Shown piece by piece: positions 39,001 to 42,000 of a stretch of 64,000 nucleotides of DNA. Positions within the stretch are counted from its first letter, which is position 1; each line of letters begins with the position of its first letter. The stretch is taken from positions 2,022 to 66,021 of IMG/VR virus record IMGVR_UViG_3300005613_000057; one strand, written 5' to 3'. The stretch is from a virus (lineage: Duplodnaviria; Caudoviricetes). A program made the position numbers.

Positions 39001-42000
39001 AAACGCAAGGTATGGGTCGTTGGAATCCGAATCAACCATATCGTTCTTGACTGCCCAATTCTTGAATTCCTTGCGATAATCCATTTCACGAAAATATGCC
39101 ATCTTGGTATAAAGATACTTCTTCTCTTTCTGTATTCGCCGTAGAAAAGAATAGAAGATGATTTGCGTGAAGAACGCAAAGGGGTTTTGAGATTTCTTGG
39201 GATCAAAGTTGTCAACATACATCAAGCAATTCTCAACACCATCACTTATCATGTCTTCCTTGAATATGTAGTTGACGAAGTTTGGCTTTCTTGCGAGATT
39301 GGTTGCGATGTCCAGAAAGCATTTACCTATGTAGTTACTTACGCCTGGAATTGGTTTGCCTTCCTTCTTGGCTTTCTTTATGAGCTTTTTATGCTCTATC
39401 ATTGCTTTCAGAAATTCTTTATTGTCTATGTAGTTTTCAGGTTTGCGTTTTGCCATGTTTTATTCCCTCATTGAAATCTTGGTATCCCTCTCCATATGTC
39501 ATCATCGTCATCATTGTTTTGTTTTCTTGAACTTTTCTCCGAAGCAGTGTTTCCAGAATCTCCGAAGAATCCTATGTCAGTATCTTCCATGTCTGGTGCT
39601 ACTTCTTTCAGTTGTTCAAGTATATCCTCTATGTTCACACCTTGCAAGTCTTCTTCGTCAATTTCCGATAGAGCTTCGTCAATGAAATCGTTGGACTTCT
39701 TTGCTTGAACATAATCTCGTATCAATTCCTTTTCCGGTTCCGAATGGGCAACGATAAATTCCTTCGGAAAGTAGTATCTTTGCGTCTTGGCAAATTCAAA
39801 CCACTTTCGGAAGGAAATACTGAAATACTTTATCTTGCCATTCTCAGTAACAGGAACTATTGAATACATCATCGGTCTATCAACAACAATTCCTTCGGAA
39901 TCAACTTTTATGACTCTTCCTATTATGTCGGATCCGTCTCTGAGTTTCAAAACTCTATGTCTGGGTCTTTTACTCATGCTTCTTCCCCTTCCATAGTTAT
40001 TCTAGTTATGTCGTAGTCAAATTTTTCTTCGTTGTATATCTTTACTCTCTCAACCATATGCTTCAAAGTGTAGTTCTTGCGACTTTTCCACGAAAGGTCA
40101 TCTGCAATGTCAAAGAGTGTTGCTATCTTCTTTCCCTCACTTTTTCTGAGCTGTCTTCCAATACTCTGAAGAACACGAATTCTACTTTTCGATGGTGAAG
40201 CAAATATGATGTTCTGCAAACTCCTGATGTTGATTCCTGTTGAGAAAGGTTCCGAAGGAAGCAACTATAATACTACCTTCGCCTCCTTTCATCTCTTTAG
40301 TAATTTTATTTGGCTTCATTTTTTTTCCTACTAATCCAATTTTCATCAATGTCATCATTTTCGGTGATGTCTTTAGCTAGTTTTATTTTTTTATTGGATA
40401 AGACAACATTTTCGTCGGGTTCACACTCAATTACATTATCTTCAAAATGAAACAATACAACCTCTCTTTTTATTGCTTCTTTTTCTGTTATAGCACGAAT
40501 TTGCTCTCTGGTTTCTCCTTCGGTTCCGCCAAATACAAAAAATACTTTCCTCTTTGTTTCCTTCTTCTTTATCATCTCATAAAGAATCTTTCCGTGTTTC
40601 TCAACATATTGAAAGAGGACAAGTGTGTTTCCTTTCGTTTTTGTCGTCAAATCGCGAATAAATTCATTGCGCTCTTTATTATTTATGATGAGTTCAATCT
40701 CTTGTGGATACTTCAAGTCCTTGCAGGCTTCCTTGTTCTTGTTGGTATGGTCGAGAACAATGCACTTGATTTTGAGAGGAGAAAGAAGTTTCTTGTCCAT
40801 CAAGTCCTTTGTTGTAATGACCTTTTGAACTTTACCAAACAATCCTTCAATAACCAATTTGTGTGTCTTTGAACCATCAAGTGTTCCCGTCAACCCAACT
40901 CTATATGGACAATCCTTGAGTTTGGTCATGATGGATGTGAGCGATTGGGCCTTAAATAAATGCGATTCATCGCCGATGACGACTCTATAATCCTTGAAAT
41001 ACTTTTCGTTCTCTTTGTATATACTTTGCCATGTGGATATGACTACTTGCTTGTGAGTATTTCTTTCTTGTCCACCGTGAATCTTGTGACAATTGTCTTC
41101 CACATTCCAAGATTTGTCCTTTGAAGAATAGTCTTCAAAATCACTATACATTTGAAGAACAAGTGAAATGGTAGGAACTATGATGAGTATCTTTTCGTTT
41201 GGAGATATGATGTTTTGATAATAACGAAGAAGTGAGTATATGATCAAACTCTTTCCAGATGCAGTGGGAGAAAGAAGAAGACAACGACGAAGATTCAAAG
41301 CTTTGAGAACACCTTCTATCTGATGTTCGTGTGGTTTGAGTCTTTTACCGTTGGAATATGGTTTCAATTCCTTCTCAAAGTAATTCTCTATGTCTTCCTT
41401 GGTGAACTTGTTCTCGTTGAATGGTATGCGAGAATCTATCTTGACACTGATGTTTCTTTGGTCGCAATATTCCAACAGATAGTCGAAAAGACCAGCGTAT
41501 ATGCATTTCGTATGAATGTTGTATAGGCGAATCTTCCCATCCCAAACTCTTTTTCTATATGCAGGAGTGAATCTAGCATTTGGAACTTCAAAAGTAAAGT
41601 AATCACAAATGTTTCTCTCTAGAGATTCGTCGGCAAAGACACGCAAATATGCATTGTCTTTGTATTCTATGTAGACCTTTTCTTCCATGTTAGTTTATTC
41701 CGTGTGTGAACTTTCTCCACTCGATAGCATTGCGAATGGTCCACTGTCTTGCAGAAATGGATTTGACAACGCTTTCCAAGTATTCACACTTTTCGTTCTG
41801 ATATTCTATTTTTGCTCTCAACTTGATGAGATCCGAATCGGATTCCAAGAATATGTCCAAGTCTTGACGAAGAACCTTTTGCTGAAACGGTTCCCATCCA
41901 TATTCCTTTAGATCTTCATCGGATATTCTTCCCGTATAATACTCCCACTTTTTCTTTCGCATTATTCTATATTCAGTTTCATATTTCTTCTTTGACAATC

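Follow-up and report, generated by a model that had tools for sequence, protein, structure and literature searches.

A uvsW gene split by an endonuclease cassette in an uncultured T4-like phage, with a half-intein-like tail and a candidate +1 frameshift site

We analysed 64,000 nucleotides (nt) of viral DNA (the window; positions 2,022 to 66,021 of IMG/VR record IMGVR_UViG_3300005613_000057), part of a 66 kb contig from an uncultured T4-like phage, in which the helicase gene uvsW on the minus strand is broken into pieces. Lists of open reading frames (ORFs) and translations revealed that uvsW coding sequence is spread over three frames, with two +1 breaks and not one. The first frame runs from 41688 to 40306 (minus strand, as are all parts of uvsW below) and encodes 460 amino acids (aa) with UvsW_N, ResIII and DEAD domains, reading past ...IRAITEKE into a 56-residue tail. 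Its native portion (40477..41688) encodes residues 1-404, comprising UvsW_N, RecA1 and the first half of RecA2, and ends at IRAITEKE. Pfam matches on this N-part are UvsW_N (4.7e-11), ResIII (4e-21) and DEAD (3.5e-15), and all 30 listed phage UvsW matches to it end at residue 403-405. The native portion has a ratio of nonsynonymous to synonymous differences per site (pN/pS) of 0.05 against L001, a related contig. The tail begins with a cassette-borne stretch (40333..40476, residues 405-452) that resembles block B, in the C-terminal half of an N-intein, and has EPDE at the TxxH position. It ends in a deletion scar with the 3' end of an endonuclease gene (40306..40332), which supplies the last eight N-part codons, SRKKNEAK, and the stop, and holds a run of eight A (A8, 40319-40326).

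The second frame starts from an ATG (40319..40317) within the A8 run, 8 nt downstream of an AGGA, and shares its first nucleotides, in a different frame, with the end of the N-part ORF. It reads a 13-aa leader, MKPNKITKEMKGG (40281..40319), and then EGSIIVASFGTF (40245..40280), a re-encoded, cassette-borne native segment in the leader frame that corresponds to the strand before helicase motif V. Beyond this it runs on senselessly (40182..40244) to a stop at 40184..40182; this part is read only if no shift occurs, and the unshifted frame, which starts MKPNKITKE, gives a 45-aa product only. The third frame (39974..40243, 89 codons and a stop) carries motif V (STGINI), motif VI (QSIGRQLR) and the C-terminal region through to the end. 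One extra base at ACC-TTT-C-TCA separates it from the second frame, and the proposed +1 frameshift site UUU_C (40244..40247) lies at this break, inside a predicted mRNA hairpin (40244..40290; RNAfold -21.5 kcal/mol, z -4.49). The C-part matches Pfam Helicase_C weakly (0.011), and is 98-99% identical to an insert-free allele, L004, with one nonsynonymous and one synonymous difference. Its stop codon overlaps the ATG of the next gene.

The initial annotation described a uvsW gene split by a 196-nt AT-rich insert at 40281..40476, and the split is real: in three insert-free relatives (L004, L005 and L045), whose flanks are 96-99% identical to the window, insert and extra base are both absent and the gene is contiguous in one frame, ...IRAITDAEKNSIIVASFGTFSTG.... 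The tail sequence and the overlapping ATG with its AGGA also translate as first described. However, the insert is not bare but the residue of an endonuclease cassette, and it comes with the second frame break in the C-part. Four close relatives (L001-L003 and L056) have an endonuclease gene exactly at the A-run, truncated in L056. The L001 endonuclease ORF has 234 aa and matches PHROG 314, a homing endonuclease family (2.1e-33); its Pfam matches to GIY-YIG and SegE_GIY-YIG are below the cut-off (SegE_GIY-YIG E 0.0013). Its relatives in phages carry annotations as Seg-like homing endonucleases. In L001-L003 the stretch at this place measures 728 nt, compared with 12 nt in the window, a difference of 716 nt. 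The L001 endonuclease ends in ...LSSREKNEAK and the window N-part in ...WISRKKNEAK, each followed by a stop. Since the N-part ends like this endonuclease, the window, L067 and L007 carry a 716-nt deletion derivative of an endonuclease-bearing cassette, and since the window lacks these 716 nt of the endonuclease gene, the A8 run is the 3' end of that gene, also holding the C-part ATG, and not a sequencing slip. The out-of-frame overlap between leader and endonuclease 3' end is likewise seen in L001. The cassette is foreign in composition, with a G+C content of 24.5% in the endonuclease gene and 30.1% in the insert versus 39.2% in the contig. Eight of the ten SIIVASFGTF codons differ from those of L004, every difference being synonymous, which suggests that this segment arrived with the cassette from a diverged donor. 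The gene is thus contiguous in close relatives and has a free-standing endonuclease at the break in others, the pattern of a gene in pieces.

The insert-free allele (40240 joined to 40484) co-occurs with the insert-bearing form in the same metagenomes (runs X1 and X5) at depths of 42-44 versus 26-57, which fits a cassette whose presence still varies within the population. No further cassette copy was found elsewhere in the contig, and a promoter and terminator scan gave six promoter-like sites, where 5.3 are expected, and no terminators. Rfam gave no match to a group I intron (Intron_gpI) at E up to 10, either at 39800-40900 of the window or in L001; the only rows were of snoRNA and miRNA type at chance level, and a group I intron was rejected. 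A small imperfect hairpin at the 5' edge of the insert (40442-40486, AAAAAGAAGCAAUA / UAUUGUUUCAUUUU) surfaced as a chance Rfam match on both strands and in the RNA fold. In L056, which is the same as L096, the endonuclease ORF is cut to 197 aa by a difference in A-run length; this contig is either a recombinant with a new insertion or one with homopolymer errors.

Both breaks fall at homopolymers, so that an assembly or sequencing artefact has to be considered, in which A7 was read as A8 and TT as TTT and uvsW is one ORF with an in-frame loop. The initial annotation had itself named A7 as the reading that would turn the insert into such a loop. But A8 at 40319-40326 and TTTC are also present in L007 and in L067, an independent metagenome contig that is 99.9% identical to the window, and TTTC is present in L001-L003, from different assemblies. 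Both sites are covered without an indel in contigs of two further DNA studies, and the A-run is the endonuclease 3' end in relatives. A sequencing error at either run was rejected on these contigs, and we regard an artefact as practically negligible. This cassette is found in seven contigs of different assemblies (the window, L067, L007, L001, L002, L003 and L056), and in all seven an extra base separates motif V from the strand codons, as ACC-TTT-C-TCA in six and as GGA-A-ACA in L056. A low-depth contig from an RNA library has 40233-40328 unchanged and runs on into the endonuclease gene, a weak hint at most, since such libraries may contain DNA.

The tail had been proposed to follow the Hint block-B pattern without its catalytic residues, and profile, pairwise and predicted-structure comparisons all bear this out. 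An exhaustive search of 1.84 billion proteins with a five-tail HMMER profile gave 31 hits. Of these, 26 are fragments of UvsW-like helicases, varied in length, with the tail module at their end, and three are repeat proteins that score through the sum of their repeats. The remaining two are true intein-bearing proteins matched at block B, namely P0027 (E 3.7e-4), which has a Pfam Intein_splicing match of 1.9e-25, and P0031 (E 7e-4), a GyrB with three inteins. By BLASTP the window tail is 44% identical to P0027 over 32 aa (E 1e-7), and hhalign of 20 tails against P0027 gave a probability of 86.7% (E 4.4e-6). AlphaFold2, given residues 287-460 and 17 sequences, predicted the tail as a separate module of four strands and a helix, with a block-mean predicted local distance difference test (pLDDT) score of 86-94, behind a low-confidence linker. 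VIA-align placed this model on the Npu DnaE N-intein chain (101 residues) at residues 52-98, with a Z of 4.7-4.8, a modest value as expected at 45 residues, and a root-mean-square deviation (rmsd) of 2.3 Å over those 45 residues; 17 of the 21 rows listed were of the Hint family. Of the check by Foldseek and profiles that had been suggested, the profile part succeeded, whereas Foldseek gave no match at E <= 0.001; among the matches that it listed, the 13 chains with an rmsd <= 3 Å were all inteins (E 1.7-6.1). The tail alone matched nothing in Pfam (E up to 1), PHROGs or the ESM Atlas, gave only chance rows against PDB sequences (E 0.6-0.7), and in a word-indexed protein search found only the L001-type cluster. 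A PDB profile alignment that ran into T4 UvsW (2oca) raised the idea that the tail is a degenerate duplicate of the helicase motif-V strands; this was ruled out, as a tail-only hidden Markov model run at full sensitivity against 2975 local ORFs found no intact UvsW, only intein block B. Across 20 aligned lineages, F, L, K, A, I, D and D columns of the tail are invariant.

The third intein of P0031 shows the order block B, ...LEDDISAV, split point, FRIKNKQTIG..., and finally ...HN followed by S. In this order the tail ends at the canonical split point, and the leader, by position only, takes the place of the first strand of the C-intein (IntC). The tail lacks a block A with Cys or Ser (or Ala) at position 1, with only 4-8 variable residues between the end of the helicase and the block-B-like strand, and the 20 lineages share no conserved Cys/Ser column. 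TxxH is absent, the window having EPDE where P0027 and P0031 have TPDH, and these columns vary in the 20-tail alignment. The terminal (H)N of IntC and a Cys, Ser or Thr at +1 are also absent, and the 13-aa leader runs directly into EGSIIVAS. Real IntC ends (...VHNC, ...VSNC) are present in related helicase fragments, but at another site. As judged from these alignments, the tail represents the C-terminal half of an N-intein from which TxxH was lost, and splicing is excluded, because none of block A, TxxH, HN and a +1 nucleophile is present. Four related helicases (P0005, P0016, P0020 and P0021) start with a canonical intein C-end (...HNC or ...SNC) and end with the dead-intein tail; in these, true split inteins have made a further break upstream. 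The Walker A region of P0032 holds an intein, and P0017 has a second, internal tail-like insert in frame.

The leader is a different matter. The initial annotation likened MKPNKITKE to the first IntC strand, a likeness that found no statistical support, the leader being too short, and at the N-terminus of the C-piece the 13 residues match the Hint fold by position only. The leader consensus across lineages is MKPx(K/E)(I/V), with M-K-P nearly invariant. In the window, the last strand of the tail has a net charge of -5 and the leader of +3. A complex prediction from the tail alignment and the first 32 residues of the in-frame C-part of L092 scored 0.26, where the mark is 0.32, and speaks neither for nor against docking. 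Alternatively, the split helicase may work with its two chains joined through the native RecA2 interface alone, tail and leader being passive baggage and the half-intein a fossil without part in docking. Two-chain function is reported for the split nrdA of Aeh1 and the split gene 43 (PMC2988022), the tail has a pN/pS near 1 in close comparison, and leader charge is not consistently complementary. On the other hand, the tail motif and first leader residues are conserved over helicase cores that are only 28-50% identical, the tail is predicted as a confident separate module, and a preprint reports that MobE-split NrdA is inactive after tail deletion (bioRxiv 10.1101/2022.08.31.505936). We consider passive baggage unlikely.

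The C-part would be complete (25 + 89 residues) only if ribosomes shift +1 at ACC-UUU-C (40244-40247). Peptidyl-tRNA-Phe could re-pair from UUU (40247..40245) to UUC (40246..40244), and UCA (40243..40241) would be the next codon. UUU_Ynn is described as a documented +1-prone site in bacteria (PMC5009743). The family to which the cassette belongs was recovered in a tail-motif scan, which found 58 viral loci; 48 of these, together with the window and L067, make up 50 assessable contigs. Leader, strand and motif V lie in one frame in 20 of the 50, and the other 30 have a gap of 1-7 nt at the same codon, inside ASY/F-GTF-STG: 1 nt in 16, 4 nt in six, 6 nt in five and 7 nt in three. The 1-nt gaps follow UUU, the 4-nt gaps are TGAC after a Tyr codon, and the 6-nt gaps are TAGTGA, TAGTAA or TAGTGC. 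Every distinct diverged junction of the +1 type (7/7) is UUU, a pyrimidine and UCN (ACN-TTT-Y-TCN), and nearby wobble positions vary. Over the nine upstream codons, 14 of 15 diverged pairs of this type have 3-6.5 synonymous versus 0-2.5 nonsynonymous differences (the L107/L109 pair has none), and the downstream C-part has a pN/pS of 0.10-0.38 among these lineages. Both frames thus appear to be under purifying selection, and between them a shift-prone P-site codon able to re-pair +1 is kept. In the lineages with 4-7-nt gaps, stop codons follow the P-site codon. L076, L078, L111, L113, L103-106, L112, L115 and L118-120 have their 4-, 6- or 7-nt gaps directly after a Tyr codon with the stop or stops first, for example TAT TAG TGA, TAT TAG TAA, TAT TGA C, TAC TGA GTA G and TAC TGA GGA C. 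A +1 shift would decode the TGAC and TGAGGAC gaps.

The frames on both sides remain open in every one of the 48 assessable cassette loci, endonuclease-less lineages included. Between tail and leader, an endonuclease gene of PHROG 314 type is present in L001, L070 and L092 and one of HNH type in L078, L097, L104, L107, L115 and L120, and only remnants are left in the window, L076, L080, L099, L103, L108, L113 and L118.

A shift could be dispensed with if the C-part had its own start in the third frame, at TTG 40264 (MLPSEPFSTG...), and the frame of MKPNKITKE encoded a short separate peptide. This frame is open, the TTG comes directly after a stop, and it is also present in L001-L003, L007 and L056. 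However, this product would miss SIIVAS, a conserved strand, the TTG falls within the stem and loop of the hairpin with the nearest AAGG 11 nt upstream, and selection keeps the strand coding in the leader frame. Moreover, in L070-73, L076/77 and L113, which share this layout, the third frame has no ATG, GTG or TTG before motif V. A TTG start is therefore very unlikely.

In the window, the inner stem of the predicted hairpin spans 40281..40253 (CGAAGG.AGUA / UGCU.CCUUCG), and in the outer stem GAAAGG (40290..40285) pairs with CCUUUC (40249..40244), so that the shift site lies within CCUUUC. Across the family, the outer stem pairs upstream GGAGG-like purines with CCUUU(C/U). When 72 nt were folded from one representative per junction type, a hairpin formed in every one of the 16 gap-bearing representatives (-15 to -24 kcal/mol, z -1.8 to -6.4) and in none of eight in-frame cassettes (z -1.1 to +1.4). 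Five intact genes gave z -2.05 to -0.03; L011, the sixth, lacked a motif match. The hairpin's 3' arm consists of the (I/V)-A-S codons, whose wobble bases covary with their 5' partners, with six pair types at the third base of Ser and five at that of Ala; the partners were taken from the minimum-free-energy fold of each sequence, which leans towards pairing. The 5' arms stand in differing registers between subfamilies.

Taken together, we favour, with a probability of about 0.6, a working helicase of two chains, in which a half-intein incapable of splicing provides the docking and a programmed +1 shift the decoding. A homing-endonuclease cassette would have entered uvsW just upstream of helicase motif V. 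The full cassette, as in L001-L003, would have brought an N-part extension of 48-59 codons, a free-standing GIY-YIG-type endonuclease gene, a new ATG with a 13-codon leader overlapping the endonuclease 3' end out of frame, the synonymously recoded SIIVASFGTF, and one extra base after UUU within the mRNA hairpin. A later deletion of 716 nt would then have removed the endonuclease gene in the window lineage and fused the N-part to its last codons. Both chains may be made from one mRNA with coupled translation, because the C-part ATG precedes the N-part stop by 11 nt. The acidic tail and the basic leader would dock like the strands that flank the break of a split intein and help to rebuild RecA2 non-covalently. 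The programmed shift at UUU_C would complete the C-part, with the conserved hairpin and the upstream GGAGG-like purines as its likely stimulator. The extra base probably also breaks the endonuclease target in cassette-bearing DNA, as proposed for T4 mobA/gene 60.

Several observations weigh against this reading, in which docking of the chains and frameshifting are both inferred. Comparison of the leader with true IntC N-termini gave no signal, and leader charge is positive in only 10 of 15 lineages. Within the window lineage, the tail differs from L001-type tails by 8-9 nonsynonymous versus 2 synonymous changes, a pN/pS of 0.9-1.0 from small numbers, as under neutrality and with no sign of constraint. 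The hairpin is placed 5' of the shift site, where a frameshift stimulator does not classically stand, and its association with gaps comes from few independent lineages, perhaps two independent contrasts. With 11.3 per 1000 codons of the contig, CUC in the 0-frame A site does not count as rare, so that the site has neither a slow codon nor a stop, and a hungry-codon stimulus is not supported; UUU CUC also occurs in frame six times elsewhere in the contig's long ORFs. In L056 the extra base is elsewhere (GGA, A, ACA, then L004-like sequence), which no simple slip explains. In-frame double stops and TGAGTAG would not be decoded by a +1 shift, which leaves the 6-nt gaps and one of the 7-nt gaps undecoded by it. 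Finally, T4 uvsW mutants are viable, so that a dead gene could be tolerable.

Some of these points fit a pseudogene, in which endonuclease invasion and the extra base, gained with it or later, for instance as a cleavage-resistant allele, killed uvsW, the pieces are decaying relics and the phage does without UvsW. The two frame breaks, the tail pN/pS near 1 against L001-type copies, the missing slow A-site codon and the viability of T4 uvsW mutants are all in line with this explanation. Furthermore, the C-part is so close to intact alleles (98-99% identity) that there was too little time for visible decay, and a selfish cassette can spread even at a cost; both alleles co-occur. But the extra base after UUU is kept as a pyrimidine although surrounding synonymous sites are nearly saturated, and the amino acids encoded by both flanking frames are preserved. 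Each gap examined comes with a covarying hairpin, the frames are open in the 48 assessable loci, including those without endonuclease, and tail and leader are conserved between lineages. A dead gene is thus improbable in our judgement.

A wider claim, which we hold tentatively and at somewhat less than even odds, concerns the cassette family as a whole. It may join two exaptations, a splicing-dead half-intein of about 45 + 13 residues, from either side of the split point, now serving as a non-covalent clasp, and a covarying hairpin that carries ribosomes over gaps of 1-7 nt, some with one or two stops. With GIY-YIG and HNH endonucleases interchangeable, the family would join T4 gene 60 as the second natural case in which translational recoding or bypass is linked to an endonuclease.

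As for the surroundings of uvsW, protein identity to the nearest isolates, Methylophilales phage Melnitz and Pelagibacter phage Mosig, is about 50%, and translations of nearby genes resemble gp23, UvsY, gp55 and gp47. Directly downstream, a 169-aa ORF (39468-39977, minus strand), whose ATG overlaps the uvsW stop, has an acidic C-terminal half and PHROG matches only of unclear function (phrog_471 5.8e-8, phrog_431 2.4e-7). An intact free-standing GIY-YIG endonuclease gene (38048-38764, minus strand, 238 aa, Pfam GIY-YIG 3.4e-11) sits between the gp55-like and gp47-like genes and has no tblastx similarity to the L001 cassette endonuclease.

If the favoured reading is true, a second, independent family in another gene and with shorter gaps would make the rules of endonuclease-linked recoding testable by comparison. 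A natural minimal non-splicing intein pair that joins enzyme halves would be a new fate for inteins, and could serve as a compact heterodimerisation module for protein engineering. Genes of this type are likely annotated as pseudogenes or sequencing errors, and the gap in 30 of 50 assessable contigs bears on the inferred recombination capacity of many aquatic T4-like phages.

The arrangement was not found in the literature searched on uvsW with split genes or homing endonucleases, inteins or frameshifts, or on degenerate inteins, and the available texts of PMC2677866, PMC2988022, PMC7824862 and bioRxiv 10.1101/2022.08.31.505936 do not describe it. In the table of PMC2988022, T4 SegE is likewise a Seg-type GIY-YIG endonuclease with uvsW as target gene, but segE is inserted next to uvsW, between genes, and does not split it. 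The same text reports that endonuclease insertion also produced two polypeptides in Aeh1 NrdA (mobE in nrdA) and phage 25 gene 43, and that the pieces reassemble non-covalently and are active; unlike in uvsW, their tails are not reported there as intein-derived and no recoding is needed. The 'fractured genes' of Dassa et al. 2009 (PMC2677866) are phage DNA-metabolism genes from aquatic metagenomes as well, with intein-type sequence on both broken ends, a GIY-YIG-type endonuclease gene between them and the break at the canonical endonuclease-insertion point of the Hint fold. However, only about 45 + 13 Hint residues are left in the uvsW cassette and splicing is excluded, UvsW is not among the 8 enzyme types of that paper, and its fractured genes have no frame break.

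With regard to recoding, window ACC_UUU_CUC is similar to the UUU_Ynn and prfB CUU_UGA_C sites treated in Atkins et al. 2016 (PMC5009743), with a GGAGG-like element upstream, and UAU_UGA_C of other uvsW lineages is the prfB poor-termination context. Unlike in prfB, the purine element of the window lies 34 nt upstream and would be adjacent only if the hairpin forms, and the A-site holds no stop or rare codon. A likeness in architecture is seen with the T4 MobA element (gene 39 / mobA / gene 60), whose recoding cassette the preprint calls unique (bioRxiv 10.1101/2022.08.31.505936). As that preprint and PMC2988022 describe it, a free-standing endonuclease there too splits the gene of an essential-type DNA enzyme, ORF1 is extended at its C-terminus, and ORF2 at its N-terminus, by a stretch that lies over the endonuclease 3' end in another frame. 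Next come a recoded version of the parental segment that was deleted and a short recoding cassette containing stops and/or frameshifts; loss of the endonuclease, or its exchange for one of another family, is frequent, while the rest is retained. The host gene differs, being uvsW and not a topoisomerase gene, and so does the gap, which is 1 nt here and 1-7 nt in the family versus a bypass of about 50 nt. The uvsW cassettes have no matched GGA take-off and landing codons, their hairpin is 5' of the site, their extensions appear to be intein-derived, and their recoding is putative. Part by part, all five elements of the MobA-type architecture are present in L001, and four plus the scar in the window.

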